Positions 1-59,500 are shown, counted from the first letter of the stretch. The stretch: 64,000 nt of DNA from Tubulanus polymorphus (GCF_964204645.1 NC_134027.1:19864560-19928559), one strand, 5' to 3'. Numbers and translations: made by a program. Notes: generated by a model not told the origin, from the sequence alone.

Positions 1-809
1 ATACCTTTAATAGATCTTCTTGGGAAGTTAATATTCTCATTAATTATTTCATCATTTGCATTAATAGTTACGGTTTTAAATTTATCAATATAATCATATA
101 ATAATGAAAACCCTTGATTGTATTGGGTTTGAATTATACTTGAAATATTTTCATCAGTTACTGTATCATATTCTAAACATATATTCGATAATTTATAACT
201 CATATCTTTAACAACGCTAGATAATACAATTTCATTTACAGGAGCAAATGTTATCTCAAATATAACATCTTCTTGAATTGCGTATTTATATAAAGGTGCA
301 TTATTATTTATCAATTCAAAGTCTAATGGAATTTTATATTTGCTTCCATATATACTTTTTATCAATTTATCTACATCATTTGTTAATATTGCGCTATTAG
401 CTTCTGATCTTAATTTATTTTGGTTTTCTGATTGGATTCCTTGAAATATCATATTATTTCTATTTTCTTTAGTTAACCATAAATCTTTATAATGCATAAA
501 TAAATTACAATCATCTAATGAGAAAACTGTTTCTGGACCAATCTTTATTGTTAACTTTTTAATCAAATATCTTCCAACATTATCAACAACATAATTATTA
601 TTATTACCGATTACTTTTATATCAGCTGATAAATAAATACTGTTTGGAACATAAAAAGTATTTTGTGTTAATCTCGGAATTCTAACGTATAAAGTTTCAT
701 CGGGATTAATATTTGAAGGGTTATGAGTAATTATATGATGTGATCTTTCTGCTTTAATAGCATTAGATATTCTATGATTCTTAGAAGGATTGATATAACT
801 TCCACTCAT
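1..809 (-). CDS. Major capsid protein (double jelly-roll type), 3' end beyond the window; absent from the ORF track
   Basis: Open frame from ATG at 809 to the edge: MSGSYINPSKNHRISNAIKAERSHHIITHNPSNINPDETLYVRIPRL...NVGRYLIKKLTIKIG...YKDLWLT...YKIPLDFELI...ITFAPVNEI...YKLSNICLEYDTV...NINFPRRSIKG. The motif pattern matches the MCP of marine-invertebrate Polinton-like elements as I recall it. Confidence 0.8.
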   Translation of the reverse strand, partial: MSGSYINPSKNHRISNAIKAERSHHIITHNPSNINPDETLYVRIPRLTQNTFYVPNSIYLSADIKVIGNNNNYVVDNVGRYLIKKLTIKIGPETVFSLDDCNLFMHYKDLWLTKENRNNMIFQGIQSENQNKLRSEANSAILTNDVDKLIKSIYGSKYKIPLDFELINNNAPLYKYAIQEDVIFEITFAPVNEIVLSSVVKDMSYKLSNICLEYDTVTDENISSIIQTQYNQGFSLLYDYIDKFKTVTINANDEIINENINFPRRSIKG

Positions 810-850
810 TTATTTAACAAAAAAATTAATTATTTATTTTTAATCATGGT

Positions 851-2526
851 TTACTTGATATTTTTTGATATCATATTCACTAACCCAAAAATAATAGCAC
901 TTACAACTGTGATTAAAAATAAAATAATATGTTCAGCAGCAAAGTTAAGAATATTACCTGCAGATTTCAATATAAAACCAACAATTGAAGCAATAACTCC
1001 TGGTAATGCTGCAGCAGATTTTTTAGATAGTTCCCATAAATATTTTGCTAATTTCTTTAAACCATCTTTAACTTTATCTTGTATAGAATTATTGCTTGGG
1101 GGTTTATCTGGTTTATTGGGAGTGGGAGTAGGAGTAGATTTCAAAGCATTTGATATAGCTAAACCAATTGTTGTAAATAACATAGTTACAGCTGTTAGAA
1201 TTGAAAGAATTGTTATTCCTTCTAATTTAAATAATAACTTTATTCTGTCTTTTAATGATATTTCAGAATTCGGTTTAATCAACAAATCTTTAAAAATAAC
1301 TTTTAATCTATTAATATTATAATCATATGATTTTAATAATAATTTAATTTCTTCTTTTTGTACTTCTAAATTATCTTTTAAATTATTAATTTCTTTTTCT
1401 AAACGTAATTCTTTTTTTCTATGTTCTATTTCATCAATTACTTGATGATCTAAATCAGACTTTAATTGTTCTATTTCTTTATTTTTATCAGTTCTATATT
1501 TTTCTAAAAATCTAATTTTAATATCTCTTTTACTTTTTTCATGCGCAATTTTATCAGCTGATTCTTGCATACCTTTAATTTATCTACGTGTTTGTTCAGG
1601 AAATGCTTCTAATTCATCATCAGTTAAATCAGGGAAGTGTGATGACACACAGGGAAGTGTGATGACACTCATCACACTTCCCTGGTTAAATCAAATAATC
1701 CTTTTTCTAGTAAAGATTGTATTCGATTTATTCCAGTTTCAGTACCGGGTGTATCTAAAATACTATTCATCTCTTCGTCAAATGAATGAATTACATCTAA
1801 CATGCTATCAAAATGTTTTCCTAATTGTAATTGACTTGAATCATTATCAATTTGTTGAGTGTCTCTTCTCGATGTTTCAGGTGTTGAAGATCTCAATCTA
1901 TCTCTATTCTCTTCCATTTCCGTTTCTGGTTCTAAATTATCATAGATTTTGTCAAATAACTCATTAATTCTTATTTTAAATAATTTTTTATAGTAATCTA
2001 TTTCTTCTTTTGTTACATCTTCTAGTTTATTATTATAAATAATTTTCTTAATTCTATCTGGTTCTAACTTAAGCAAAGTTGATTTTGCCAATATTTTGTT
2101 TTGATTTTTATAAGAGATATTAATATAATATTCACCATTTAAATTATCACCATCCAAATAATAATAATATTCACCATCTAAATATTTTAAATCTTTTACT
2201 AAAAGTCTAGCGCCTCTATCATTTATATTATAACCAGATTCTTCAAATAAAGGTTTAAAATCATAAATAAATTCATTATATTCTAATTCTTGTCTTGCTA
2301 AATCTGGATTTTCATTTTCAGTATTTATTCTCTTTCTATTTGTTCTATCAAATTCATCTGTTGATGGGATTTTAGAACCACTATCTGCTAAATTAGAATT
2401 ATATGCTGATTCATCATCATTATCAATATTAGTTCCATTAAAATCGGGTTGTGGTTCATCATCAATATATCCCTCATTATTATTTCCCATTTCTCCCATT
2501 TCATAATCTTCTACTCCTTCTGCCAT
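851..2526 (-). pseudogene. Single viral coiled-coil/membrane protein gene (about 537 codons) split into two ORFs
   Basis: Removing the 62-bp insert+TSD at 1630-1691 puts ORFs 1672..2526 and 851..1570 in frame (...GLFDLTDDELEAFPEQTRR*IKGMQES...). One TAA remains at 1580-1582. Acidic N-terminus, coiled coil, TM helix (GITILSILTAVTMLF), Pro-rich linker, then ALPGVIASIVGFIL and a C-terminal TM helix. Confidence 0.8.
1623..1691. repeat. DNA-transposon excision footprint (P-element type) inside the viral gene
   Basis: GTTAAAT [CAGGGAAGTGTGATGAC aca CAGGGAAGTGTGATGAC ac TCATCACACTTCCCTG] GTTAAAT: 7-bp TSD around 17- and 16-nt inverted ends. Confidence 0.75.
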
Positions 2527-2542
2527 TTACATAATAAAAAAA

Positions 2543-3844
2543 TTAAAATTTAAAATATAATATTCCTCCGATTACAATTCCTATACAAGTTATAGCTAAC
2601 TTAGTATTTTCATGGGATTTATTATCATCATTTAGTTTAATTATATCATGTTGAATTTTATCAGTTCTATTATTTTCCGTAGTATTATAATCTTTTATTT
2701 TAGAATCATTATTTAATTTAATATTCTTAGTTTTAGTTTCAGTTGATTGAATGTGTTTTTTATTTTTTTCACCTTCCATTAATTTTGGAGCAGTAATAAT
2801 CTTTTTATTTATATCATTCAATCCAAATGAATTATTTATTGTTGCAGTTTTAATTAGATTATTATAACCAATTATATTTCCCATCTTCAATACTAAATCA
2901 TTAGAAATAATTAATAGATTAGGGCCTATACAATAATTAAGTCTTACATGAGATTTATCTAAATAATTTTGATATCTTATAATGTTTTTTGGAATCGATC
3001 TATTTTTATCATTATGAATTGAATCTTCAAATAAAACTTTAAACTGTTTCTGCGCATCGAATGAAGTGTTATCATTTCCAATTATTGGGGATCTTGTTTC
3101 AACTTGAGCGCCTAAAATACATATCAAATAAATTCTAATAGATTGATTTATTCTTTGTATACCTGATTTTGTAAAACCTTCACCATTTTCTAAAATGAAA
3201 TTAACCCAACCATTATTATTATCAATTTTATGATTATGATAAGCTCCAATTCTATGCATATAATCAATTCTTTTTATTTCATACTGTTCACCAACACCTT
3301 GCAATTTACCATGCGCTCTAAAATCGGAATTAATATTTATATTAAATTCATTACATATTTTATAAAACTTGGATATATTAATATTATTATCCAATTCTTT
3401 AAAATATTTAGACCCGGGTAAAGGACATTCTAATTCATTTAATATTATTCTGATTTGAAAATATGTGTGAAATCTAAATATTGTGTGAATTAATTTTAAA
3501 TCAGAATACTTCAAATTTTTATCTAAGTTATTTAAATGATCATTCCAACTTATTCCACATCCTGTTGTTGCACAATAAACAGCAAAATTTAATTGATTCT
3601 GCCAATATTTCATATTAGATTTTACTTTATATATATGATATTCATCTCGAGTAAAAGTAACTTCATATGTATTAAATATATTTTCCATTTTAGAAATAAA
3701 AAACTGTGATTCATTAACATAAATTTCGAAATTAGTTAATGAATTTAAAACTATATTTCTATATGTAATATTTTTCTTAAAATCTATTGCTGGAATATTA
3801 TATTTAATTGATTTATTATATCGGAAAGCTTTTGGAAACCCCAT
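2543..3844 (-). CDS. Conserved unknown viral protein, 433 aa, C-terminal membrane anchor
   Basis: Intact ORF with YWQNQLNFAVYCATTGCGIS, FRFHTYFQIR, KICNEFNI..DFR and RINQSI..Y..CILGAQV motifs, recalled from related elements. Hydrophobic C-terminus LAITCIGIVIGGILYF. Confidence 0.85.
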   Translation of the reverse strand: MGFPKAFRYNKSIKYNIPAIDFKKNITYRNIVLNSLTNFEIYVNESQFFISKMENIFNTYEVTFTRDEYHIYKVKSNMKYWQNQLNFAVYCATTGCGISWNDHLNNLDKNLKYSDLKLIHTIFRFHTYFQIRIILNELECPLPGSKYFKELDNNINISKFYKICNEFNININSDFRAHGKLQGVGEQYEIKRIDYMHRIGAYHNHKIDNNNGWVNFILENGEGFTKSGIQRINQSIRIYLICILGAQVETRSPIIGNDNTSFDAQKQFKVLFEDSIHNDKNRSIPKNIIRYQNYLDKSHVRLNYCIGPNLLIISNDLVLKMGNIIGYNNLIKTATINNSFGLNDINKKIITAPKLMEGEKNKKHIQSTETKTKNIKLNNDSKIKDYNTTENNRTDKIQHDIIKLNDDNKSHENTKLAITCIGIVIGGILYFKF

Positions 3845-3860
3845 TTATATAACTAAAAAA

Positions 3861-4295
3861 TTAATAATTTATTAATTCTTTTAATAATTTATCTTGTTCT
3901 TCAACTGTTATATGACCATTTAAACTTATTATATAATCTAGTGTGTTCTTTAATTTATTAATTTCTTTTATATTAGTTTTAATTTTTTCTTTATTACTTT
4001 TTATATTTAATTTTGAACTTATACCAGTTAAAACACTTGGACTTAATCCTAATACACCAATTGATATAGCTAAAGGTGTTAATGGGCTGAATATTGCTAG
4101 AAATGTTATTACAGAACTAATTGTAACCGAACCACTTATAATCAAATAATATATAATTTTACTTTTTAAATATTTTTTCTTTTTTATCTTTAAGTCACTT
4201 TCAAATTCTAATATTTGTTTTTCTAAATATGTTTTTAATTTAGTTTTATTTATATCATGAGGAATAATATCAATATTATCAACTTTATCTTCCAT
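3861..4295 (-). CDS. Viral two-TM helical protein, 144 aa
   Basis: Intact ORF: basic coiled coil, two hydrophobic segments, C-terminal NGHITVEEQ..LL..L..Y motif. Confidence 0.8.
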   Translation of the reverse strand: MEDKVDNIDIIPHDINKTKLKTYLEKQILEFESDLKIKKKKYLKSKIIYYLIISGSVTISSVITFLAIFSPLTPLAISIGVLGLSPSVLTGISSKLNIKSNKEKIKTNIKEINKLKNTLDYIISLNGHITVEEQDKLLKELINY

Positions 4296-4314
4296 TTATT
4301 TAGAATAAAAATTA

Positions 4315-4737
4315 CTAATTAGTAAACTTATAAGCAACAAATATAACAATAACTGTTCCACCTAAAATCCAAATTATTTCATATTTCTGTTGTTCTTTAC
4401 TCGGGGTATAATAATCTGATAATTTAGGTTTGTATAGATGTAATTTTTCTTTATTTGTTACTGCGTTATATAAACTCATTGCATCATCAACTGATTGAAA
4501 ATCTCTATGTGAAATCTTCTGATTATATAATTCTTTATTGATGTAATCCATATAGTTTTGTCTCTTTTCTCTATATTCTTCTGCAGCTTTATTGTATTTC
4601 TCTAACGCTAAATTATGTCTTCTTTGTTCTCCTAATGAACTATTTTTATCAATATGTTTAAATAAATAACCACCACCAGTAAATGCTAAAGCGTTAACAA
4701 TTGCCGATCCTATAATAGTTATAATTGCAGAAGCCAT
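4315..4737 (-). CDS. Viral membrane protein, 140 aa
   Basis: N-terminal hydrophobic MASAIITIIGSAIVNALAFTGGGYLF, an E.RRH.LA.E coiled coil, P.LSDYY.PS..Q and a C-terminal TM helix. Confidence 0.85.
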   Translation of the reverse strand: MASAIITIIGSAIVNALAFTGGGYLFKHIDKNSSLGEQRRHNLALEKYNKAAEEYREKRQNYMDYINKELYNQKISHRDFQSVDDAMSLYNAVTNKEKLHLYKPKLSDYYTPSKEQQKYEIIWILGGTVIVIFVAYKFTN

Positions 4738-4983
4738 TTATTTAGCAAAAAAATTATGCATTTTTATGGGAGGAATATATTTTTGTTTTTCCAAATAATC
4801 AATAGTTAAATTAGATAAAGTAACTGCTAATGTTAATTTTAAGATATCATTTATATCAAATCTATCAACATTAACACTTCCCATTTTGAATACTTTTTTT
4901 AATACCATTGAATAACCAACCGTTCCAACTGATAGTAATGCGCCATTATATAATCCAGTTATTATCCACTTATTATCACTCAT
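4738..4983 (-). CDS. Small hydrophobic viral protein, 81 aa
   Basis: Intact ORF abutting its neighbours via TAAATG; two hydrophobic stretches. Confidence 0.8.
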   Translation of the reverse strand: MSDNKWIITGLYNGALLSVGTVGYSMVLKKVFKMGSVNVDRFDINDILKLTLAVTLSNLTIDYLEKQKYIPPIKMHNFFAK

Positions 4984-5340
4984 TTATTTATCAAAAAAAT
5001 TACTATCATCAAAATATTTAGTTAACTTATTTATGATTATTTCAACATTTATTTCATTACTAGTTTCATTTGTATATATTTCAATTATTATTTTTTTAAT
5101 ATCATCGATGATAAAATCTTCATCTAATTCATAAAATCTTAAAGATTCTCTAATTAAATTAGTAATCTTTTCTACATTTAAAGTTTCTTTATCTATTGTT
5201 GTTTCATACTCAAATGTTGTTTCATTAGAAAATACAACATTTTTGATTTGTGTAATTACATCATTAATGTTAAATTTCATTTCTTTCTCACGTTTAAAAT
5301 CAAATCCAAAACATATACTCGGTCCAACAGTTATATTCAT
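4984..5340 (-). CDS. Unknown acidic viral protein, 118 aa
   Basis: Intact ORF in the packed array, carrying the shared upstream motif. Confidence 0.7.
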   Translation of the reverse strand: MNITVGPSICFGFDFKREKEMKFNINDVITQIKNVVFSNETTFEYETTIDKETLNVEKITNLIRESLRFYELDEDFIIDDIKKIIIEIYTNETSNEINVEIIINKLTKYFDDSNFFDK

Positions 5341-5356
5341 TTATATAGGTAAAAAA

Positions 5357-6112
5357 TTACTCTTTACATCTTATAACTAATTCATAAATTACAGGAAAGT
5401 TATTCAAATCAATTAAGTATCCATTGTGATTTCTTATTTCTAACTTAAAATTATTAAATTTTGGAATACAAGGTTTGAAATCACAATCTGTTAAATTATA
5501 ATTTATTTGAGTTCCAAATTGTTTAACATTTTTTAATGGTAAAATATTTAGTATACTAGAACTACAAATTGTTTCTTTAGTTGCTTCGAAAGTTTTTGTA
5601 GGCTCGATTAAATTGCAATAAATATAAAAGTGTGTAAAAGGTATTATATTTGAGCTGCCTTCTGCGTTTTCAGTAACTGTAAGCGGTTTAATTCCTAACA
5701 TTTTAGCCAGTGGTTTGTTTACCATATATTTATGTTGTTCATTAGATATCTTTATTCTAATTTTATTAGTACTATCAATTTTATTAAATTTAATTTCAAA
5801 TAAAGAAGTGCCCCCGATTTTCAACCGCGCTCTTCTATTAATTTCCTGCGCTAATGATTCTAAATTATATAATCCTGGTTTTAAAAATATATGAAACCAT
5901 TTATCTTTATTTCTCATATAAATCATAAACCCTCTATGTTCAAAAGTTTTATCCGATATATTATAAAAAGAATTACATAAACTTATATTTACTAATTTTA
6001 AATCAACACAATTCTTAAATTCTCTATCTAATTGTACTAGTAAATTATGTGATTTATAATTTGTAAGTTTTCTAGAATCAACAAATATTCTGTATTCTTT
6101 TAATTCCACCAT
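5357..6112 (-). CDS. Minor capsid protein (penton, single jelly-roll)
   Basis: Typical Polinton mCP pattern: IFVDS...LKLVNISLCNSFYNIS, PGLYNLESLAQEIN, FYIYCNLI, ILNILPL, LEIRNHNGYLIDLNNFPVIYEL. Confidence 0.8.
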   Translation of the reverse strand: MVELKEYRIFVDSRKLTNYKSHNLLVQLDREFKNCVDLKLVNISLCNSFYNISDKTFEHRGFMIYMRNKDKWFHIFLKPGLYNLESLAQEINRRARLKIGGTSLFEIKFNKIDSTNKIRIKISNEQHKYMVNKPLAKMLGIKPLTVTENAEGSSNIIPFTHFYIYCNLIEPTKTFEATKETICSSSILNILPLKNVKQFGTQINYNLTDCDFKPCIPKFNNFKLEIRNHNGYLIDLNNFPVIYELVIRCKE

Positions 6113-6129
6113 TTATTTTACATATTTTC

Positions 6130-6471
6130 TTATTCGAAATCTATTTCATGGTGCCCTTTTTCATTCTTACCTTTGTATACGAAATAGAAATCTCCAGAAC
6201 ATAATTCTTCTAGATCTTCACTTGATAATCTATGAAATCTATCTGGTAAATAAGTTCTGAATTTATATTTATTTTCTTTTAATCCTTCATATTCTAAATG
6301 AATTACTAATTTATCTCCATATTTATTAGTAATTGTTTCAATGTTAGTAATTAAATATTTCTTGTGAATTGTTAACTCAGTTAGTTTTTTAAATTTATAA
6401 TCTACAGATTTGACGCTTGAAGTATCTTTAATTCTATCTAAGAATTCACTGTGTACTTGTTTACTCTCCAT
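6130..6471 (-). CDS. Small Polinton-associated protein, 113 aa; putative OB-fold ssDNA-binding protein
   Basis: KKLTEL..HKKYLI....T.KYG..L...TYLPDRF...FVYKG pattern, directly downstream of pPolB. The fold is an inference. Confidence 0.6.
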   Translation of the reverse strand: MESKQVHSEFLDRIKDTSSVKSVDYKFKKLTELTIHKKYLITNIETITNKYGDKLVIHLEYEGLKENKYKFRTYLPDRFHRLSSEDLEELCSGDFYFVYKGKNEKGHHEIDFE

Positions 6472-6501
6472 TTATTATACAAATTTTTATTAAAATTGAT
6501 T
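6469..6501 (-). promoter_or_regulatory. Second viral promoter-like motif, AATCAATTTTAATAAAAA, upstream of the 113-aa gene
   Basis: 18-mer at 6484-6501 is identical to the one at 10531-10548; they start 30 and 31 nt before the respective ATGs. Confidence 0.65.
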
Positions 6502-9500
6502 AACACGCTAGAATCCTTTTCATAATCTCATTTTCTTTTGTTTCTTCTCTTTTGAATTTTATATATTCATCTAAATTGCAACCATAGGCGACTGTGTGGA
6601 TTCCATCATCTAAAATATATCTTTTATCATCAAATGGGTTTAGACTTATCTTCTCTATCTCTTCAATATACATTTCATGATCTTCAGATCTTAAACATTT
6701 CATCTTATGTTTTCTAACTTCTTCTTTAAATATACAATTGATGTAATCTTTGAAATGAATATTTTTTTCTACTACACTTTTGGTTATTCCTTTTAACTTT
6801 TTAGCTTCATGTTCTTTAGTTTTATATGAATACATTTTAGATCTAATACCTATGAACTCTATCATTTCTTCACCACCTAATTCATCCTTAAACTTCCCAG
6901 GAACTTTTTTATTATCATTGCTAAACAATTCATGATTTTTTGGATAATTATTGAAATCAAAATGATGTTTTAATGTTTTTAAATCATCTGTTATGTTATC
7001 AGTTTTTATCTTTAATATGTAAGAATCTGTATCAAAATATAATATTTCTATATTCTTTTCTCCAAAATGATGTTGTAATACATTATAATAGAATTCATAC
7101 ATCAATAGCTTTGAAATTTCTAAAACTGCAGCTCCAACATAAATCGGTTTGTTAAATTTCATACTTGTTCTTCTCATTTTAACTGCAGCTAAATTTTCAT
7201 TAAATATTTTGTTACCTATAAATTTAGGATATGTTTGTAAATGCCTTATCCTTTTGCTATTACTTACTAACTCAATATCATTTCTATTTCTTATGTTTTC
7301 ACAAGTTTTTCCATAAAACGCATTATTCATTAACTTAAAAAAATCCTTCTCAAAATCAGTTTTAGATTTAGTTCTCTGTGTAGTATTAAAATCTATATAT
7401 TTTTCTAACCACTTAGATTGACTGAATGAAATATATCTATGTACTTTTTTTAATATCATTCCTTGTCTCAAATAAAACTTTAACATTCTATAATGTACTA
7501 CATAATTATATTTATCTTCTTGAGTTACCATTAACTTTTCAGTATGAATATGATTATCGGGTTTAATTCTTTTTTGATAATTTGATAATTCTTCATGTTT
7601 AACAGTTTTATGTTCGGGACAATATGCTAGATTTCTAGATTTGAATTTAATATTTTCAGGGTATTCTAAATCTACAACGAAGAAGTAACCAGTATCTGAA
7701 TCATCTGCAATATCTAGGATTCTTTTCTTCCAATCAAATTTATCAATTTGTAAAACTTCAGTTATTTCAAACATCCCATAAGGTTGTGGTTCCATCATTG
7801 CCCAACCATAAAGATTATTTGCATCTATGTATAATAATTTATATCCAGGATTATCATTTACATTGAAATATCTATCACCCAATACACCTGAAACACCTCC
7901 TCTTATAGATTTTTCAAATCATAGTAATTGATCTATATTTGTTAACAAATCCATTTTTATATCTGTAAATTTTAATCCACAATCCCATGTTAATCCTGGG
8001 CTAGAATAACAATGACATGGATCAATATTAAAATATTTTAGGTTTACATCTCTAAACCTTTCGAATATATCGGTTAATAATAATACATCTGATTTTAAAT
8101 ATAAATCTACTAATTGCCCGTGATTTTCTATTTCGAAATGATTCCAAATATTCAATGTTCTATTATAGACTTCATCTTTAACATATTCATTTTTTAATTC
8201 ATCATAGAATTGTTCTTTCAATAATTCAGTTATTTTAAAATCATTATGTGATTTATAAAATGAATATGGAATTGCTCCTTTATATCTCATTAATTGAAAA
8301 TCATCATAATTTGGGTAATATTCTTTTAATATCTTTAATTCATCATCAACTAATGATTTTGATAAGTTATCTAATGAACTATTTAAAAATCTATATGAAT
8401 CTATAAATCTTAGGCAACCAAATTGGAATGATATATAATTCTCAGATGTTTTAGCTAACATTCTAAATTTATAAGTTGGTATTTTATCTTTTGATCTATT
8501 TGAATTTAATATTTCTATTTCATTATTGATTTCTTCTATTTTATAACATAGCTGTTTGATAAATAAATGTGCATCATATCCTGATAGATTATGAAATATA
8601 ACTGGTACAAAATTAATTTTCTTAGCTTGTAAGTTACAATTCTCATGTGCAGCGCCTCTAAACTTTCCATTCAAATGATCATGGTCTCTTACTTTTTTAT
8701 CTTTATAATTAAATATCTTTTCACAATAATAACATTTATCAGCAAACTCAAATTCTTCTTTATCTTCTTCTGTCATTATAATTTCTATATTTGTATTCAA
8801 TAATTTACTAAATTTTATTTCATATTCAATTAATAAGTCACAAAAATGATTGATAACATTTTCATTTCTATAATTATAATATTCACTTTCAATTAGTTCT
8901 GGATAATCAGATTTAATATATAACCCGAAAGCTGCAGCTGATTGATGAATCTTTTTAATTGTATTTGTTATTGGTGGTTCATCTGAATAATCACTTTCAT
9001 TAGAATTTAATTTCTTTCTTTTATAATATATATCTTTTCTATCTTTATCTGTTAATTCTTTATTTAATGATTCAAAATCTCCATATATTACAAATGGTAC
9101 TTTATTTTTGTAATCATATTTTTTGAATTCTAATATTTTATCCTTTTCATTTGGTAAAACTAATTTACAATAATCATGATTATCACATAGTTGTTTATGA
9201 TTTAATAATGTACTTTCATTACTAAATTTATGTAAACATTTTCTACATAGATATATTTTATGGTGATCATTTTCTGATTTGAAAAATAAATCTATTTGTT
9301 TAATCCACATATAATGATTCTCATAATATAGTATATCTATAACATTATTTGAATCATAATCTTTTGATAGGTATAAAGGTTCTAATGTATAATGTTTAAT
9401 ATTATTTCCTTTTGTATTTGGTAATTTAATTAAATCAAATACATTTATCTTTAAATTATTATCTCTTTCTATTTTTGGAATATTTTTAATTCTAACAGGA

Positions 9501-10517
9501 TACTTATCTATCTTATAATTATTTTCAAATTGTTTATAATGAGTTAATCTACAAATATTATAAGTTGCAGGATGTAAACAACTTATTATAGCCCATATAA
9601 AACATTTTTTATCAAAATTTTGTATATTTATTACTGCTTTTGTTGTAAATGGTAGTTTAATATAACTTGTTCCATTTATACTATCATCTTTATAATATGA
9701 TAAATTATTTTCATCAATTGGTTTTGATTTAGTTAACTTATTATATTTTGTGTTATAAACATGTAAAGTTATAAATATTATCTCATCAAATATTAAACCA
9801 GATCCTTCAAAATATTTCTCTTCTATTTTAGTTTTTATTTCATTATAACATTTATTTAATTTATCATCTATATGTTGTTTTGAAATAATATGTTGTGAAT
9901 GAGAATTTATATTATATATTGGTTTATCTTCAGATTTTATGAATTTAACTTTAACTGATATACTAATTTTAGGATATTCAACATCTGTAATTATTTTTAT
10001 TATTTCTTTCATATTTTCTAAATGTTTTTTATTTTCTTTTAATGTTTTACCTTTATGAAATTTAAACTCGATAGCTGCTGGGCCAATATCACTTTTAAAT
10101 GCTTCGGTTATCTCTATATCTTTTTTCTAATGAATTAATATAATTTCTTACATCTTCCATGTATGGTCTTTTATTGTTTAATTTATTTTTTATTCTTTTA
10201 ATTGTCTTCTGTTTCTTATCGTTATCATTATCAAAATAATCTTCACCTAAAATATCATTATTCTTATTTCTAATATGACTTATAGATTTTAAATGTTCTT
10301 TATAATATCTTTTATCACTGAATGATTGATTACATGTATCACATTTGTATGTTTCTTTTTCATTCTTTAATTCTTCTAATTTAGTTTCTAATATATCATC
10401 TTTATATTCTAGTTTCAATTTATTCTCTAAATGTGTTATAGTTTTATTGTGTCTTGCTTTTTGGGATTTAACTATATCGATATTACATGTTGGGCAGTAG
10501 TACTTATTTGCTTCCAT
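6500..10517 (-). pseudogene. polB: Protein-primed family B DNA polymerase (pPolB) with N-terminal C2H2 fingers and an EndoVII/HNH insert; two lesions
   Basis: Exo I VIYGDFESL, Exo II FHNLSGYD, Exo III YLKSDVLLL; Pol A YIDANNLYGWAM, Pol B KLMNNAFYGK, Pol C YFDTDS; EndoVII C..C...VRDHDHLNGKFRGAAHENCN. ORFs 7919..10012 and 6500..7882 are in the same frame, separated by one TGA (IDQLL*FEKSIRGG). ORF 10095..10517 joins through a frameshift in the 6-T run at 10121-10126 (LEK/DIEITEAFKSDIG...ENMKEII). Confidence 0.92.
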
Positions 10518-10548
10518 TTTAATACTATATTTTTTATTAAAATTGATT
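10515..10548 (-). promoter_or_regulatory. Second viral promoter-like motif upstream of pPolB
   Basis: AATCAATTTTAATAAAAAATATAGTATTAAAATG; same 18-mer as at 6484-6501. Confidence 0.65.
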
Positions 10549-10599
10549 TTAGAAGTTCAATGATTTAAATGTTATTCATATATATATGAATATTTTAAG

Positions 10600-10865
10600 A
10601 GTAATAGGGATAATGGGCTTTCGGGTTAAAGGTTGAACGGGCGGGTGAGTAAAAATGAAAAACATAAAAATAATAACAATTTCTACTTGAATTAGGAGTG
10701 AAACTCATAAAATGAAAAATAAATTCGAGCGTGTGAGAATTTATTTTTCATTTTTATGAGTTTCGCGAGTAATTCAAGTAGAAATTGTTATTATTTTTAT
10801 GTTTTTCATTTTTTACGAGCTCGACCGTTCGACCTTTGATCTGAAAGCCCATTATCCCTATTACT
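10600..10865. repeat. About 266-bp imperfect palindrome in the terminal region of the viral element
   Basis: Arms AGTAATAGGGATAATGGGCTTTC...AAATAAATTC and GAATTTATTT...GAAAGCCCATTATCCCTATTACT around the loop GAGCGTGTGA (10727-10736). Confidence 0.9.
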
Positions 10866-12787
10866 AAACCAAATGATATTTTAATTTTCGTATAGTAATT
10901 ACAATTGGTCGTTTGATTCAATTGTTCATTTTCTTTAAAATAGAAACCCTTATAGAACTCAGATGGAAAATCCACTATGTTAATCCACTAGTTTAAGCAA
11001 GTTTCGTTTTATCTAAATAATATGTTCAGTGAGTTTCGATCACAATGAGTTAAATTAGATATGATTATCATTGTTATGAGTATGAGCCAATTAGATAAGA
11101 CTTATGATTGAACGTTCCGGTTTCATACAACAAAACAAATAGAATGGATATTCTATATCATGAAAATATATCAAATAATATGTGAAACATTTCACATTGA
11201 CACGATGCAGTGATATTAGTGAGCTATTTGTTCTATTGACGTTGACCATGAACATGAATGAATGAACTTGTACCAGCAGAACAATTTTTGTCAGAACAGT
11301 CTTTGAACAGTTGAGTTACCTCCAGTTGAAGAATTAACTTTAAAGTATTTGAAAAAATGGATTTTAACGCCTGATTCATAAGTCCTCATTTAATATCTTC
11401 TGATATCGGTCTCATAATCGGGCAACGCATATGGTATAGGAACAAACCTCACGGGTTTCAAAGTCCTGAAATAGGCTTTTGAGATCGGAATCGCTGTCGT
11501 CACATAATAGTGAAATCGATCAGTCTAATGCGACACAGATTAAAGGTATCGGTAATGAAAACTAGTGTATGAAAAATAGGGTGTGAGTGCTGACTCCTAC
11601 ACCCTAAATTCTAGTAAAGAAATTATTTTTTCATGTGGTCCAACCAGTATTTGATAAATCTATGCCAATGAACCTACAGAAAGATCGCATAGGAGACAGT
11701 TTAGGTGATGGTCTCACTGTATAAACTAATAGGGTTGCTCGTTCAGCCGCTCTCAAGTGCTCTCAAGAATACTTAGTTCTAATCCATCCCAAAGTAAATT
11801 GGGCCATTTCTATTTGAAGCCTTTTATCTTATACAAAAACAAGAGGATATCGCCATAGTTGCACCATGGGCTCGCTATAACAAAAACAACTGAGGAGGTC
11901 AATAGTCAACGGGATCCAATATCCAGTACTCTGCTTTGCAATTAAAATGGACCTACGAAAATCCGAATACATCTCTACATTTTGTTTCATGTCTTTCGAG
12001 AAAATAGAAAAAACCACACTATCAAAAACGATGATATCTAAAATGTGCAATGAACATCTTTAGGCAAATACTGACCTTCAAATTCAAAGATTGTATTTAT
12101 AGATTAATAATACACGATATACATTAATAGACATAATTTAGTTATCGAGCCCATTGCAGGTCTATGCAATCTGATATTATTTGAATATGTATTTATCGAG
12201 TAAGATAACGCATTAATACGGTTGTTGATTTATAAGCGTGAGTCTATCCGGGTAACGGGTAATAATCCGCCACATAAAAATCTAGCCCTTCCAAATTGAA
12301 TTTCATAACATGTTAATCGATGATTCTCATCTTGATTAAGAAAAACATTTATCGATGTTACTATTTCTAGTGAGCACTAGATGATCGACAGTAATCCCTT
12401 CAAAGTGTACTGCGAACGCTAGCGAAGCACACGAATCATTTTAAGGAATGATAACTTGAGGATATTTTGATTCTAGGAGTACGAGTTGTTGATTAGATTC
12501 GAACCTCAGCCCATAGAATAAGACAATTGGCTAATAAAGGTCACGTGAAAATGAATAATGTCTATCTGACATAAATTAAATGATTTTACATATATATATT
12601 CCTTAACACCGTTGTAAAAAATTTTATCTAAAAAATTTCTAAAATATTGCATGTTTCCACTGTTTCACAATCTCAGTATGCAATCCTAACTTCGAATTAA
12701 ATACTACGATCAGAATTACAATTTCATAACCTTGTTTATCGACTCTAGGTGACAGTGATCAAATGATAATTGAGAATAATAAAGAAT

Positions 12788-45300: not shown

Positions 45301-47972
45301 CTACACAAAAGGAATCTAAATTCCTGATATTTCCCACACATTTGACCAAAATTTCATGATTGAATCATAAGGTATCAACGGCGGAGACTGTTTCTTCTCA
45401 TGAGGTTCATTCAGTGTTACTCATCTACAGGCAGCAAGAGCAACAAGACATGAAAATTCAAATTCCTTGGACCCAGTTCCACAGTTCTGAGTAAAGATTT
45501 GTCAAAATCAGCCATGTTCATTTGGTAGACAGAGTCGACCTAAAATCAATTTGGTCTGCCATTCGTTATTAGGGAAACATAGTTGATCAACTCAGATGGC
45601 TGTTTTCCTGGGAGAAAGAGTTAATTCAATCAATAAACCTATAGGCCTACTTACTACTATCACTAATGTTCTCTAAACTTACCGAATTATCTTTGTTTTC
45701 CTTTTCTTCAAGAAGTCGTTTGGCAGTTTCTGAAGCGCTTTTAGCTTGTTTCAGAGCAGCTTCCTGCTGAGCGTTCAACACAGCCGTACTGCAGATTAGT
45801 CCGACCAATCGCTTCAATACCCTAAAAATAATCACAGAATGCAGAACTAGATGAAAGCCAAATTCATAAGGACACCATTCTACCAGAACGTCAATTGTTT
45901 CCAATAGCCGATCTTTCATGTGATAGTGAGCTCCAAGGGGGATGAATATATAGAATTTTTTTCAATCGGGGATCATTCATGGAAATCTTGCATTTTATTT
46001 GATGGCCTAGATGGCATTGGTCACGTGATAAAAGCACATGGCCGAAATACCTTAAACCTATCAAGGCCCAGGAATTTTGCTATGTAGGCCTAGCATCTAT
46101 TACTCCTCAGAAAATTCAAGGGAAAATCCAAATTTATCATTATACAGAATAGCTTATTCAGTTTATTTTCAAGTATTACAAGTTCCTGTTATTTTATAGT
46201 AAACAGTCAAGGCTTTCACATGAGATAAGATTTGATGACGTAGACCACCAAATCGTGTCCTTTTGCCCCCCTACCGAAATTCATCCAAACCTACTTGGAT
46301 TTGAAGTGGGCGCTCAGATATGTCATATTCATCCTCTAAATACTCGAGAATTTAAAATAGGAAGATCTTGATTCCTGTACAGTATTCTGAGGAGTTTGGT
46401 GCCAAGTTAATCAAGCTACTGGGTTCGATTCCCATTATGACAATTTTTGTGCAGCAGACAAAAAAAGTGTCAGGGTGGCATTTGGCGGCTTGAGGAGTAA
46501 TAGGCAGAGTAGATACAAGTGGCTAGATTGCTAATGGGTCAGTATACACTGCGATGCATGAAACATGAAACTATGTAACAGTCGCCTTGGAGAAATAATG
46601 GGCTTTGAAATTTGGATTGGGAGTCAATCATTGTCATCAGGGTTTGGTGATCAGGACAGAATGAAGAATTGACTGGAACAGCAGAAGTCAGCGTAACGTT
46701 TTACTAAGATTATTAATTGAAATATTCTGACTATGAATAATATTTTGCCACAACAGACTGATTACCGCTTCATTTGATATTTGGTGACCGGGTTTTCAAA
46801 TCATTATTTACAGTTCTTAGTTAATTTCATCGCTCAATGTGAAAATGCTAATCATTATCATATTTGGTAAGAATATGATTGTAGTTCATTTCTAGAGATT
46901 GTTGCAATTTGAGTTTTTGTCTCAATTAGTTTTTTTTTTCTTTCTGAACCCACGCCAATACCATCAGCAAGTTGGTTATATACATACGTACGCCTTACAT
47001 TAAAACCATTGCTCGAAGCGTCTTCAAAAATTCTCAGATTTTGGCAAACAATGATGGCCACCAGTCAGCTATCTTGATTCTGATTGGACAAATTTGTTGG
47101 CTCTTTATATGCCTAGGGTAGACATCACGACAATCTTTAAATCACATAAAACCTTGTCTAAATAACTTGATCCTGTCTTCCGATGGATGTCTCATGAAAA
47201 GTGAACACAATAGCCCACTCAGGGGCTATGCCTCAAGTGGGCTAAGAATAAAGTAAATCATTTCTGTAGATAAACCAAGGACAAATCAATTGGAGTTTAA
47301 TTACTCAGACTTTGTCCTGGACTCTGCATACCTTTCAGACACCCGTTACAAAATTAATAGGAGGGCTAGGGACAGCAGGACCTAGACTGGAGATTGATAG
47401 CTGTGATAGTGGGACAGATGTATGAACAACTTACAGCCACAAGAACAGCGCAAAACCAGCAATGTAGAAATTCCTCTGAGCGCGGAAGAGTTTCATATGC
47501 ATCATTGTCTCAGCTTGTGGATGGTGGGCAGCCTCCACGGGGTCGATTGCACTTGAATAATTTCTCACATCACGAATTGCATCTAAAATATAATACAAAA
47601 CTACCAATACTGCCTGTTATCCAGAGAATAACCAATTTTGACCAAGGTGAGTTCTCAATGTTTCTTGTTACATTCACTAAACATACCATGGAACATCTCA
47701 CCCGCAGCCTAAATGGAATAACATGGTTTTTGAAAGAACTCATGCCTAAACAGAACTGAAGAACTTTTTAAGAACTTACCCATGAACAGAATAACGAGAA
47801 TAACGATCAATATGTTGAAATATAAATGAGAGTGACTTTCTAGATTCTTCAGCAGGCGTGATTTGAAGATTTTCTGCCATCTTGCAGCTGAAATCCACGG
47901 CACCAGTAGTAAGATGACGAAGAAGATCTCTGTGTAAAGAAACGTCGCTACAAATGTCCACTGCAATGACAT
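39365..47972 (-). CDS. BCAP31: B-cell receptor-associated protein 31, 253 aa; coding exons 47972-47780, 47582-47435, 45821-45683, 45131-45005, 41698-41598, 39418-39365
   Basis: MSLQWTFVATFLYTEIF..LLL.PWIS..RWQKIFKSRL; DAIR.V; MKLFRAQRNFYIAGFALFL; A.LKQA.SAS; M..QA.ST.KEYDRL..EH; C-terminal KKDD ER-retrieval signal. All introns are GT-AG with consistent phases. Confidence 0.95.
39707..41388. mobile_element. Non-autonomous hAT-like element with 6-bp TSD, in the last BCAP31 intron
   Basis: CCTGTG|CAGGGTGGAAAGTC ... GACTTTCCTCCCTG|CCTGTG; contains HINE copy A. Confidence 0.65.
40320..41362 (-). mobile_element. Helentron/HINE-like element, copy A, with an internal 154-bp satellite
   Basis: Subterminal GCCCAC/GTGGGC, terminal hairpin, A/T-run flank; satellite units start at 40390, 40544, 40698 and 40852. 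Confidence 0.75.
42000..43198 (+). mobile_element. Helentron/HINE-like element, copy B (inverted relative to A and C)
   Basis: TTTTAGCCCACTTAGGACTT...; reverse-complement satellite units; ends GTGGGCATGGTCTTCCTGGACCCATAG. Confidence 0.75.
43393..44794 (-). mobile_element. Helentron/HINE-like element, copy C, with five satellite units
   Basis: AACTAGGGGCCAGGGACACCATGCCCAC start (a CTAG end on the minus strand) and GTGGGCTAAAAA end; unit cores at 43468, 43621, 43773, 43931 and 44081. Confidence 0.78.
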
Positions 47973-48299
47973 CGTGGTCGAGAAACTACAAATAAAGAAG
48001 AAAAAAGATATCATTTTTGAATTAAAGGTTTTTAGTAAGAATGCAGTTAAGGTGTCCAAGGAGTAGTGGTGTCCTATCCAAATGAGTACCAGTAACCAGA
48101 ATGAGTATCAGAATGTTTAGCTGACTGGACTGGGATCAAGAAAAAAGGTATTAGTAAATAATTTGCAACCAGCGAAGTGGTTGATCTTTCTAGTATCTAG
48201 AGGTGTTCAACTATATTCATTTGATAGCTTTCACTCGCATGCAGTTAGAAACTGTCCATAAATAACATCCGCATGAAATAGCTAAATTTTGACACGTTC

Positions 48300-56556: not shown

Positions 56557-59500
56557 TTAGGAAATCGGGTCACAATGAAAACAAAACCACCTGATATGTT
56601 CAGGAGGAGCCTCATTGATTGGAGCACATTTCCAATGATACCATCTATGGCAATTATCACATTCAATTGAGAATGTGGACTTTTTCTTAGGATTAGCATT
56701 GCAGTTTTTGTGGCAGACAGGGCAGGTTTCAGCAACTAACTGAGGAGGGGTTTTTTCAACTTTTGATGGCAAAAGATTATCTAGTTTCAATTTTGCTAGG
56801 TTTTGGAGGCCTGCATTTCCAGGTTGATCTATAAGAATTTCTAATTCTTTTTCAGTATTGGAATTATTGATTTCTGTAATAGGAGAACTGTTGAGATAAT
56901 CATCTCTATTATTATAATCGATTACAATAGATTTTTTCTTATGATGATTATGTTCAATACGAATGTGCTTTTGAAGGAATGTTTCACTTGCATATGAATT
57001 AATAACCCCATCTGCCCAACAAATAGCACATGAGATAGGTTTCAAAGATGAATGAGAAGTGGATATGTGCCTATCTAGTTCCCTGCGACATGAACAAAGA
57101 TATGGAGGATTTATTTTGTCTTTAATACAAAAGGAACAGACAATACTTTTTTCAAATAAAACAGACTTCGAGTCATTTTTAACAACTGGTTATGACTTAA
57201 TATCTTTTGGTTTGGTATCTTTTGATTTTTTCGGTAAGGATGATTTATTCTGACTTAAAATATCTGCTGAAAATTCGATATCATTGCCAGGATCTGGATC
57301 AGTGGAGTCTATGGTTTCAATTTCTGATATTTTAGCTTTTTTAACCTAGTTTCATAGCAGCATTTTCAACCATAGCAGAAAAGGATACACCTCTGTTAGC
57401 AGGTCTAATTATCTTTCGCCCTCCGTGTCTTGCATTCTCAGCATCTTTAGGCATTGTAACCTTAGGGCAGTAAGGGTCTATCACTTCAAGTTCAGGAAGG
57501 TTTATGGCAACCTGATTGTCCTTGATTGGACCCTCAGCACGCCTATGAGCCATATTGTGAGGTTGTCGTTTGGCAGGTCGTCCGCTTATTAACTTAATTC
57601 CACAGTGGCTTTCATTATGTAAAATACTTAGAATGTGCCCTTTCCGAGCAGCATTGATATCATTCGAGCTAGCAATGTGGGAATGATCTTTTAACTTATC
57701 AATGAGGGTAGATGAAACAGAACTATTTTGTCGAGTAAAATTGTAAGTTGGCAGAGGCTCCACAATGTGGAATTTATATGCATCAATTAAAGCCTTCGTT
57801 GTGGTTATATTGTTTTTTTGGGCAAAACAGGCAAAAAGATGTTTGCAAAAATATGGTTGTCCAATCATTATAAAAGCTTCACAAGTACATATACCTAGTT
57901 TCAAATTGATTAAATGGCAATTACCATCTACGTATGAAAGACAATTTTCAGGAACGATTGTAATAACGTAATTGAATAAGATACGACTGGATATTGAATC
58001 TAAATTTCCTATGTACCTTCGGCATTTTTTTGAAATGTCATATGAATGTTCCTCGGATATTGATACTTTATCGGGGAATCTTTCTTCTAAAACATCAAGC
58101 TGATTGAATGTATATTGAGTATCACCATTGAAAAATTCTACGTACATTTCATCTTCATCTTTCAATAGCAGTAGTTCCATTATCCTGTTATTTATGAACT
58201 GATTTCCCTTACGGCTGGGGTGTAACAAGTCAGTCCTAGATCACAAAATTTAGAAAAAAACAAGTTAGTTTAAATCGCGAAAAAATGCACATAACCTACT
58301 GGGCTTATTAAAATTAAACGATTACTTACGGTGAAAGGAGATCTCTTGAGAAGTGAAAATCAACGAACTTTACACCAAGTGTAAAGCATTCGCGGTGCAG
58401 CATTTCATTGTAATGAAATATCTTTGTGTCAGCATCGAAACTTTAAAAAAGAAAGAAATTTAAAAATCATAACATCGATCATAAATATAGTATTTCAAGA
58501 AAAATCTATTCTTGATACTTACTCATCACATCGAGGAAAAAGAGCTGGTACAATGATGGTCCCAGTACATTTATAGAGCAACAATCGAATTAATTCAACG
58601 TGTCTTCGCAGAACAATCTCAAGCGGGACATCACGCGTCATATTATTTGTTCCAACATGGACGATTAGTTGTTCCACATTCAGCATCTTCACTTTTTCAA
58701 TTCTGTAATATACAACTAATCAGTAACCCAATGAAAATGAACAATATAAATCAGTACTGAACCGAGAAATTACCTTCCATCAATGTTTCAATGGTTCCTC
58801 CGGGGCACACGATCCTTGTCCATTCAAATAAGCCTACACCATCTAGCCCAGCATACTTTAAAATGCTGTCTGCTACGAGACCAATACGCTACAAAAAAGA
58901 TTATTTGTCAGTCTCAGGCCAATATCACAGGGAGGTGTGAGAGAGCACACTGGTTACTGTAAGACCCTACTATATGCAAAAGAAGTGACACATATATGTA
59001 TATCAATGTGATAGAATTGATTGAAAAAATTGTGCATAATAGTAGCTAGTGCCCAAAAATAGAACACAGTGTTATTGAAGTGAAAATTTCTAAAATCCTC
59101 TGAAGCGGTGCTTATTTGGTAGCTACATGGGTATTCTAATTGAATAAGCATAAAGATAAGCGTGCACACACAGTAGCCTATGCATAAACAAGGGCCAGTT
59201 TCACCTTCACCTAAAAGTCCTGCGGTGTAAAGACTAACTTGTTCACCTAAACCACCTCTACCAGGCTGTGGAAGGCCTAACATCAGGCACTAAATTAAAA
59301 GATTCCTCTAAATCAAATTATCTATAAACATCCTCTTAATTGCTGGCAGACTGATTCAGGGAGGGGTGCAGCCCAAAATAGGGCATAGGTATCAGTATCA
59401 TATATAATTAAAAATCAAAAGGGCACCAGATCATCAGAAAACATAATACCTATATTTTGGAAGTAGGCCTACAGAGAACATGTTTTGGAATATAAGCTTT

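Follow-up and report, generated by a model that had tools for sequence, protein, structure and literature searches.

A Polinton-type element of Tubulanus polymorphus from a lineage that keeps a constant set of predicted membrane proteins and has no detected adenovirus-type protease

The 64,000-nucleotide stretch of Tubulanus polymorphus DNA analysed here (the window; GCF_964204645.1 NC_134027.1:19864560-19928559) begins with a virus-like element in which a run of predicted membrane-protein genes accompanies the capsid genes, which raises the question of whether its particles contain a membrane. Inner membranes occur in bacterial jelly-roll viruses and giant viruses; adenoviruses, virophages and Polintons, which are thought to link the two, are usually regarded as lacking a membrane and as maturing through a protease. 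Our preferred reading is of a Polinton-type virus without an adenovirus-type protease, whose particles would enclose an inner lipid membrane in which an unvarying group of predicted membrane proteins sits; we hold this reading to be evenly poised between right and wrong. That the element belongs to a distinct lineage with a fixed gene core is very probable.

Extent and gene content of the integrated copy

Positions 1-10865 hold the right-hand portion of a Polinton-type element that is integrated and present in many copies (Table 1); its left part lies outside the 64-kb window. An earlier note had recognised the element but placed its right end at 10989, which the reads rule out: at 10865 their depth falls from ~1,500 to ~100, and 1,335 reads continue beyond into mixed sequence (agreement 0.34). 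The flank is joined from 10865 to 259 other letters in contigs of 3/3 contig runs, and GC content is 0.18-0.26 in the element versus 0.30-0.52 elsewhere in the window. The 266-bp terminal hairpin has a fold z of -26, with equal stability in 0/200 shuffles. Polinton terminal inverted repeats begin 5'-AG, and the element terminus reads 5'-AG on the minus strand. The hairpin likely lies within a terminal inverted repeat with its inner limit near 10563, before which 436 reads share one common loose end; the relative L060 is flanked by 181-nt inverted arms. Given that this host has many copies of the element family and that other samples seem to lack an insert at this site, the family has been mobile recently.

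Table 1. Features of the element, in window coordinates
Feature	Position	Strand	Description
Gene-start motif example	807..835	-	T-run, short spacer, TAA directly preceding ATG
MCP	1..809	-	double jelly-roll; first 269 aa, window edge cuts rest
Coiled-coil protein ('Cah')	851..2526	-	2-3 C-terminal hydrophobic helices; broken in this copy
Hairpin insertion	1623..1684		62 bp, 16-bp inverted ends, target duplicated
433-aa protein ('Titinmem')	2543..3844	-	~350-aa folded domain, flexible linker, C-terminal membrane anchor (predicted)
SLATT-like protein, 144 aa	3861..4295	-	two TM (predicted)
140-aa protein ('Fus')	4315..4737	-	hydrophobic Gly/Ala-rich N-terminus, coiled coil, C-terminal TM (predicted)
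81-aa protein ('Nispumem')	4738..4983	-	conserved, small, helical, moderately hydrophobic
118-aa acidic protein	4984..5340	-	non-hydrophobic, near clade only
Probable penton (minor capsid protein), 251 aa	5357..6112	-	family membership
113-aa protein	6130..6471	-	35% to an L003 ORF
pPolB	6500..10012	-	exonuclease and polymerase motifs by eye; PF02945 match
C2H2 zinc-finger protein, 140 aa	10095..10517	-	zf-met E 2.3e-4, above cut-off
Terminal region	10600..10865		266-bp near-perfect hairpin reaching element terminus

The previously proposed minus-strand order (pPolB, 113-aa, penton-like 251 aa, 118, 81, 140, 144, 433 aa, coiled-coil/TM, MCP) was confirmed, and the listed genes stand, with the zinc-finger ORF at 10095-10517 as one that had been missed. 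The 113-aa protein, likely a single-stranded DNA-binding protein, matched no Pfam family. This copy is broken in two genes, the coiled-coil gene and pPolB. The latter carries one premature stop and falls below PF03175 detection, while homologous pieces in L060 match PF03175 (E 6e-7); candidate Cys and His motifs for a possible N-terminal OTU domain on PolB were seen by eye. The coiled-coil gene, described earlier as one of roughly 537 codons, does encode a coiled coil and predicted TM segments, but it lies in pieces: the ORFs at 1672-2526 and 851-1570 both match a single 485-aa ORF in L003, and a 62-bp hairpin insertion and a premature stop disrupt the frame. Exactly 62 bases are skipped by 44 reads, with 9 letters fitting either side, and the insertion is particular to this copy.

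The membrane-protein block and its conservation among relatives

TM-like segments were called where a Kyte-Doolittle 19-mer reached at least 1.6, a simple hydropathy window rather than a topology predictor. Five of the six block genes had been expected to encode proteins with hydrophobic or TM segments; by this measure the 140-, 144- and 433-aa and coiled-coil proteins pass, the 81-aa protein is borderline (1.16) and the 118-aa protein lies well below (0.41). The 118-aa gene was found in only 3/80 loci (80 of 501 confirmed loci being listed) and, being neither hydrophobic nor conserved, is ruled out as a core member. Across the families, two to three TM-like segments were predicted in 15/15 coiled-coil members, two in 19/21 SLATT-like members and at least one in 13/14 of the 140-aa members, while only 2/19 of the 81-aa family passed the threshold. 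Amphipathic helices are predicted in the 81-aa protein and in the coiled-coil C-terminus (moment 0.45). Pfam SLATT was matched weakly by 3/21 SLATT-like proteins (best E 2.5e-4, under cut-off).

The 433-aa family is large (3,356 clusters at 50% identity), and its members look tail-anchored and without a signal peptide. A C-terminal TM-like segment was predicted in 89/105 homologues of a close set and 62/96 of a wider set, with a median tail of 2 residues, and an N-terminal hydrophobic segment in 0/105 and 0/96. This layout accords more with an inner membrane than with an envelope acquired by budding. The model of this protein (pLDDT 80) gave 0/300 rows at E 0.001 against BFVD (best E 0.53), 0/302 against PDB by Foldseek (best E 1.3) and a best Z of 3.9, to isolated helices, with VIA-align over 48,161 chains; as the whole model of more than 400 residues was used and not the domain alone, these misses do not establish a new fold. 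A trimer prediction of its domain, made without an alignment, scored 0.00, which speaks neither for nor against a trimer. Profile searches of PDB sequences returned nothing significant for the 433-aa, coiled-coil, 140-aa, C6, pPolB and MCP families or for the ATPase (best E 3e-4, a Cdc6 protein), and no significant homologue of iridovirus VP88 or of poxvirus L1/A16-type anchor, zip or fusion proteins emerged from the fold and profile searches. In line with the earlier expectation that the block would not map onto described Polinton core genes, no significant Pfam or PHROG assignment to such genes was obtained.

The block was also expected to recur in related elements, and it does. All nine tested families (433-aa, MCP, penton, coiled-coil TM, ATPase, C6, 140-aa, 81-aa and SLATT-like) occur in 10/11 loci of at least 10 kb, the eleventh missing only a 140-aa match; since the loci were picked by the 433-aa protein and the profiles come largely from the same loci, this co-occurrence is partly circular. 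The core is kept across GC contents of 0.20-0.54, ~30% identity, inversions and varied gene order, and with either of two unrelated replicases, one being pPolB and the other a long fusion that includes a superfamily 1 helicase. At the level of gene content, nine families are shown to be inherited together with the capsid, ATPase and integrase genes, and because the core genes stay with the capsid while the replicase swaps, they are most simply read as virion genes. The placement of the block between penton and MCP holds for this clade (L003) only, the same genes being rearranged in other clades. Another small TM family adjoins core genes, relatives carry fibre-like genes (cluster C11), and Bcl-2 and a nucleoside kinase occur as cargo in one locus each. 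Scans of viral_contigs confirmed none of the candidates obtained with the single 433-aa sequence (0/25), its profile (0/178), MCP (0/97) or ATPase (0/45), and a search of a phage collection gave no match.

The suggestion that integrase, ATPase and protease lie left of the window was borne out in part. An integrase and an A32 ATPase lie past MCP in colinear L003, an rve integrase and an A32/FtsK ATPase occur in other loci as well, and the A32-type assignment was obtained in 19/19; a protease was not found in relatives. Pfam recognised an adenain protease in 0/128 leftover frames of four loci, among them one with inverted repeats at its ends, an absence that rests on Pfam sensitivity and on one decayed locus (L060) and three incomplete ones, and a protease family in 0/33 ORFs of 11 loci. 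Peptidase_C5 was touched by 1/17 C6 proteins (E 0.031). Adenain is likewise not among the 13 genes given for Meld6842 in the PMC11071296 supplement. From gene content, the lineage likely matures without an adenovirus-type protease.

Capsid proteins, a possible inner membrane and competing readings

The claim that the MCP is a double jelly-roll protein was upheld through a full-length relative, the 415-aa L003 MCP, which is 77% identical to that of the window. Its model (pLDDT 83) matches the PBCV-1 capsid chain with Z 26.9 and rmsd 3.4 over 343 aligned residues, and the PBCV-1, faustovirus, EhV and ASFV capsid chains span Z 26.9-21.7. Capsids of inner-membrane viruses (Z 26.9-20.9) rank above virophages (19.5, 18.3) and adenovirus (12.0), in a PDB set that showed no Polinton capsid, so that the modelled ranking lends an inner membrane weak support; an adintovirus capsid protein was also matched at E 2.4e-13 (rank 30, 11% identity). 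The product of 5357..6112 is probably a penton or minor capsid protein. Its family occurs in 54/80 of the listed loci, and similar proteins carry the label Penton in the PMC11071296 supplement (compared by eye), while direct matches are weak (DUF5901, E 0.002; PBCV-1 P1v1, E 0.36 in the profile search of PDB sequences, not significant).

On these gene-level data an inner membrane in the virion is, in our estimate, a proposition with equal weight on either side; the membrane assignments rest on hydropathy, and the lineage is known from genes rather than from particles. Under the inner-membrane reading, pPolB would copy the element from its terminal repeats and the rve integrase would insert it, and late genes would be expressed together upon activation. 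The tail-anchored 433-aa and coiled-coil proteins would then enter a host membrane, probably the ER, with their large domains cytosolic, and would recruit and curve it beneath the growing MCP/penton lattice, in the manner of the anchor, zip and tape-measure proteins of iridoviruses and chloroviruses. The A32 ATPase would pack the genome into the membrane-lined shell. After uptake and uncoating, small proteins would fuse with or pierce the endosome, candidates being the 140-aa protein, with its hydrophobic N-terminus and TM anchor, or those with amphipathic helices. Inner-membrane proteins of iridoviruses are described as anchored, facing the cytosol and situated between membrane and capsid (PMC10090177); the predicted 433-aa topology corresponds to this layout, unlike that of the nematode signal-peptide fusogen, which counts for an inner membrane. 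Membrane-active proteins are also present in Polintons thought to be non-enveloped, which counts against it.

A virion without a membrane, in which internal lytic core proteins comparable to adenovirus VI or adintovirus PLA2X and GasderminX are combined with non-structural remodellers of host membranes for assembly or exit, is possible but clearly the less probable account. Adintoviruses carry membrane-active virion proteins with no envelope proposed (PMC8502044), the coiled-coil gene is classed by Buck et al. as 'Cah', a hypothetical capsid-surface protein (PMC11071296), and the amphipathic helices described above would suit lysis. It would nevertheless be hard to fit a folded domain of ~350 aa with its terminal anchor, together with several TM helices of full length, into a core that lacks lipid. 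Lysis of the protein VI type requires maturation by a protease, yet no protease was detected in the scanned relatives. Entry proteins of the poxvirus mature virion have no signal peptide, are anchored at the C-terminus and contain conserved cysteines. An outer membrane displaying the block as a comparable entry-fusion complex, in which the jelly-roll protein would form the shell or a scaffold, is suggested by the conservation of C91 and C96 (105/105) and C164 (99/105) among close 433-aa homologues. We consider it improbable: C91 and C96 are less kept in the wider set (81/93 and 78/93) whereas H126 is invariant (95/95), so a metal or catalytic site fits as well as disulfides, and the penton and fibre-like genes indicate an exposed icosahedral shell. 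The Buck label 'Ayleven' for C6 hints, by reading of the name, at poxvirus A11; C6 as A11 is unsupported, with no Pox_A11 match in 17 C6 proteins. Least probable of all is a role for the block as accessory cargo that manipulates the host and has nothing to do with the virion. Its SLATT-like member belongs with a family named as effectors, and SLATT-like proteins are found in many small DNA viruses of unrelated kinds, so that this gene need not be structural; the Bcl-2 and nucleoside kinase genes show that relatives do carry cargo. True cargo is patchy, however, whereas nearly all loci have the block, its genes interspersed with those for MCP, penton and ATPase.

A further alternative concerns this branch alone, namely that it is a virophage-like parasite relying on a poxvirus-type helper to transcribe its late genes, with some TM genes acting against helper or cell; we regard it as unlikely. 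It draws on the start motif of Table 1, which also precedes the genes starting at 2526, 3844, 4295, 4737, 4983 and 5340. TAA stands immediately 5' of ATG at 9/11 gene starts versus 15/254 other ATGs (p 4e-9), and together with an upstream T-run at 7/11 versus 0/254, and TAAATG is the late start signal of poxviruses (PMC3061580); the motif was chosen after inspection of the sequence, two of the nine are simple junctions of a stop and a start codon, and an ORF caller favours an ATG following TAA. Polinton-like parasites of entomopoxviruses exist (PMC11296320), and L006 has a weak VLTF3-like gene (E 6e-4). Identity with these entomopoxvirus-associated elements was rejected: all of them encode a protease, which sets them apart from this lineage and weighs against a helper. 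The motif is confined to one side of a quick tree of 59 rows, preceding 54/70 starts in 25 loci below 42% GC versus 4/153 in 40 loci above, though the TM core is common to all. An early promoter of mimivirus type was considered upstream of the zinc-finger gene and the 113-aa gene and was rejected, the promoter word lying in reverse orientation. The most comprehensive statement, which we offer tentatively and with less confidence than the inner-membrane reading itself, is of a very large, unnamed, protease-less animal Polinton lineage with an inner membrane of PRD1/giant-virus type, built by five to seven proteins of its own and led by the tail-anchored one with its unassigned fold, a lineage of which this AT-rich branch, with poxvirus-type late starts, may parasitise a large cytoplasmic animal DNA virus.

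Relation to known systems

The constancy of the core, the missing protease and the poxvirus-like T-run/TAAATG start motif in one branch are new. If the inner-membrane reading is true, the lineage would be a membrane-containing eukaryotic preplasmivirus, an abundant group of animal elements of 13-18 kb equipped to build a membrane would serve as a minimal system for membrane recruitment, and a possible missing step between bacterial jelly-roll and giant viruses would be at hand. Inner-membrane double jelly-roll viruses (iridoviruses, chloroviruses, ASFV; PRD1) give the best structural matches to the modelled MCP and share the A32-type ATPase, and the anchored minor proteins that face the capsid in such viruses (PMC10090177) have predicted counterparts here; in contrast to these viruses, the lineage is ~13-18 kb, integrating and pPolB-based, and homology between its TM proteins and theirs is not established.

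The description of the lineage as poorly characterised stands insofar as a literature search, with most subscription journals outside it, found no paper describing it, but two genomes had been deposited with their genes named. In the PMC11071296 supplement, Meldvirus sus6842 (BK066732) and MeldLC027333 (abalone) have the same gene set (Hexon, Penton, PacK, Integrase, PolB, Titinmem, Cah, Fus, Nispumem, Slatt, Ayleven, Lardeb), as judged by motif text search and by eye rather than by alignment, and their gene order follows another clade, unlike the window. Five of Titinmem, Cah, Fus, Nispumem, Slatt and Ayleven are in the window, and Ayleven (C6) is in L003. Meld23486 'Hexonrif' was rejected as a member, its sequence being unlike by eye. 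Buck et al. 2024 use gene names as arbitrary labels and file these relatives under Meld, not Adinto (PMC11071296). Titinmem, Meld6842 and LC027333 have 0 occurrences in its main text, and no lineage definition, membrane hypothesis or missing-protease remark appears in the parts consulted.

The premise that Polintons are not noted for membrane proteins had to be softened, since PLA2X, GasderminX and cupiennin-like proteins (PMC8502044) and a nematode fusogen (10.1101/2022.07.12.499685) are known. Adintoviruses and animal Mavericks-Polintons share pPolB, an rve integrase with chromodomain, an FtsK/A32 ATPase, hexon, a probable penton and inverted repeats with this lineage, and SLATT labels stand on some of their maps (PMC8502044); their membrane-active genes are the three just named and not the present TM set, and they have adenain, which was not detected in the relatives scanned here. 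The survey of Starrett et al. 2021 used adenain as bait (PMC8502044), and the 433-aa family is a clean marker for elements that such surveys would skip. Nematode Mavericks with MFUS-1 (10.1101/2022.07.12.499685) are likewise proposed to form membrane-bearing particles, but through one captured glycoprotein of class III, which bears a signal peptide, whereas a multi-gene, signal-less core is found here. The word 'membrane' has 0 occurrences in the text of the 2026 PLV framework (10.64898/2026.06.19.733378), which covers Group 2 Maverick-Polintons; in these animal elements helicase-polymerase fusions frequently take the place of pPolB, a swap also seen in the loci L017, L050 and L066, and the same work also has octocoral, hydrozoan and bivalve outliers.

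A widespread Polinton lineage and its earlier records

The membrane-protein block is not confined to a single odd locus but belongs to a widespread Polinton lineage in which the membrane-protein core is constant and adenain, the adenovirus-type maturation protease, was not detected. The window part of the element comprises eleven minus-strand genes, ordered as zinc-finger, protein-primed polymerase (pPolB), 113-aa, penton-like 251-aa, 118-aa, 81-aa, 140-aa, 144-aa (SLATT-like), 433-aa, coiled-coil/TM and major capsid protein (MCP, first 269 aa), and positions up to 10.9 kb are AT-rich, with GC 0.18-0.26 vs 0.30-0.52 elsewhere in the window. Metagenome contigs searched with a 433-aa family profile yielded 501 confirmed loci, of which 80 were examined. 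The near relative L003 is colinear with the element and continues beyond MCP with an rve integrase, an A32 packaging ATPase, C6 (a protein of 206 aa) and one small protein with a TM segment. The earlier note's suggestion that integrase and ATPase may lie left of the window is matched in this relative, while the protease named with them was not found in the relatives.

All nine families tested (433-aa, MCP, penton, coiled-coil TM, ATPase, C6, 140-aa, 81-aa and SLATT-like) occur in 10 of the 11 loci of at least 10 kb, and the eleventh lacks a 140-aa match only, these loci having been picked via the 433-aa gene and the profiles built partly from them. The block is conserved, except for the 118-aa gene (3/80 loci). 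Gene order varies among clades, and so does the replicase: some loci carry pPolB, others a helicase fusion. The 433-aa family falls into 3,356 clusters at 50% identity, individual clusters reaching 445 members, on megabase contigs. Patchy cargo was also observed (see table).

Protease families gave no match in 33 ORFs from 11 loci, nor in the 128 frames left unassigned in L003, L017, L050 and L060, the last of which has inverted repeats at both ends, though decayed. A weak Peptidase_C5 match in one of 17 C6 proteins (E 0.031) was taken as noise. Since the lineage shows most Polinton features and the protease was not found, it is not filed as a canonical adintovirus.

The lineage has been catalogued twice, without interpretation in the literature examined. 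Buck et al. 2024 (PMC11071296) deposited Meld6842 (BK066732, 13,310 bp) with this gene set and re-annotated the abalone record LC027333 likewise; in the available text the gene names are arbitrary, with 0 occurrences in the main text. The survey of Starrett et al. 2021 (PMC8502044) was baited with adenain, a gene not detected here, and the membrane-active genes in its available text are others. The elements of Barth et al. (PMC11296320) encode a protease, whereas none was detected in the present lineage. The accessible text of a coral survey (PMC11131425) reports frequent unknown proteins and uses the word "membrane" 0 times, as do those of a 2026 framework (10.64898/2026.06.19.733378) and Krupovic et al. 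(10.1101/2024.03.18.585575); the available parts of PMC6260650 and 10.1101/2025.02.07.637071 hold nothing specific on the lineage. No description of it came up in literature searches, and the supplements of the Starrett, Buck and bioRxiv papers may contain more members or labels.

Capsid, membrane proteins and the form of the particle

The identification of the MCP was confirmed by the full-length L003 MCP (77% identical to that of the window), which was modelled at pLDDT 83 and matches double jelly-roll capsid proteins: PBCV-1 (Z 26.9, rmsd 3.4, 343 aligned), faustovirus (Z 23.8), EhV (22.6) and ASFV (21.7), with lower scores for Sputnik (19.5), mavirus (18.3), PRD1 (14.2) and adenovirus (12.0). 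A BFVD search was concordant, with adintovirus and MELD capsid proteins among the matches at 11-12% identity. The 251-aa protein is tentatively a penton, for which direct support is weak. MCP homologues filed as Bartonella proteins (cluster P0187) lie on short contigs and are likely carried-over host DNA.

Hydropathy gives clear TM segments in four of the six unknown genes, where the earlier note saw hydrophobic or TM segments in five; the 81-aa family passes in only 2/19 members. The coiled-coil family has two to three TM segments (15/15), the SLATT-like family two (19/21) and the 140-aa family at least one (13/14). The model of the 433-aa protein shows a confidently predicted domain of ~350 aa, followed by a disordered linker and a helix at the terminus; a C-terminal anchor is predicted in 89/105 homologues and, among more distant ones, in 62/96, where the median tail is 2 residues, and neither set contains an N-terminal hydrophobic segment. 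Within residues 84-164, H126 is invariant (95/95 distant homologues) and Q84, C91, C96 and R132 are highly kept, suggesting a possible metal or catalytic site.

The core genes keep company with MCP, penton and ATPase even where gene order and replicase differ, and are most simply read as morphogenesis genes; that the block is cargo appears highly improbable. With a signal-less, tail-anchored layout the large domains would face the cytosol, the site of jelly-roll lattice assembly, and the minor proteins with TM segments of grouper iridovirus are located between its inner membrane and its capsid, one being ER-targeted, according to the available text (PMC10090177). For a budded envelope, a glycoprotein with a signal peptide would be required, such as the nematode Maverick fusogen in the part of that report available (10.1101/2022.07.12.499685), whereas the 433-aa family has no signal peptide. 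These considerations favour an inner membrane, to which we give an even chance; an outer membrane is improbable. A lipid-free particle, with membrane proteins that would be partly lytic and partly non-structural, we consider somewhat unlikely.

Termini, damage and gene-start motifs

Raw reads labelled as this species (~12% of one run) place the element terminus at 10865 and not at 10989, the end given in the earlier note: depth drops from ~1,400-1,500 at 10411-10627 to 50-100 past 10876, and 1,335 reads run past 10865 with mixed sequence. The depth near the terminus suggests, as a rough figure, 15-25 copies with 90% identity or more; in coding bins depth ranges from 40 to 995. In contigs of three runs (two samples, one study), the flank from 10865 adjoins 259 letters of other sequence, the pattern expected at an empty insertion site. 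The terminal hairpin shows many length variants among reads.

The window copy is broken. Its pPolB has one premature stop, and its coiled-coil gene has another, at which most reads differ, as well as a 62-bp insertion skipped by 44 reads. This insertion, presumably a miniature hAT-type remnant, has no second copy of its end within the window. Separately, 83 reads connect 6488 directly to 10540, reflecting either a polymerase-less derivative of the element or mis-joining at the shared upstream word, which is possibly an early promoter.

TAA directly precedes ATG at 9/11 gene starts vs 15/254 other ATGs, and with an upstream T-run at 7/11 vs 0/254. Among relatives, the motif marks 54/70 starts of 25 AT-rich loci vs 4/153 of 40 others, and in a quick tree (59 rows) the bearing loci all fall on the same side. 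TAAATG is the late start signal of poxviruses in the available text of PMC3061580; helper dependence in this branch is doubtful, and the motif may be a private promoter.

Coordinates of features in the window and in related loci
Feature	Location	Remark
T-run + TAA/ATG motif	807-835, 2524-2551, 3842-3873, 4293-4321, 4735-4763, 4981-5005, 5338-5366	late-type gene starts
Hairpin insertion	1623-1684	16-bp inverted ends starting CAGGG, tandem partial repeat, short target duplication
Second shared upstream word	6472-6501, 10518-10548	before 113-aa and zinc-finger genes
Terminal hairpin	10600-10865	266 bp, one near-perfect hairpin (predicted fold, z -26)
Host Bap31/Bap29 gene	45647-48107	exon-like pieces (E 3e-16)
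PHD-finger ORF and adjoining second ORF	56557-58240	
Virion core with 1,100-aa replicase ending in superfamily 1 helicase, not pPolB	L017 9967-13404, L050 9279-12458, L066	
Patchy cargo	L006 7433-7843 and 3242-3748, L003 10340-10981	Bcl-2 (E 2e-18), weak VLTF3-like gene, deoxynucleoside kinase (E 2e-31)

The flank of the element is eukaryotic host DNA with the exon-split Bap31 gene, and the relatives point to an animal host. Further along, the PHD-finger ORF and its neighbour, which we take to bear a SWIM-like motif, are probably a DNA transposon remnant.
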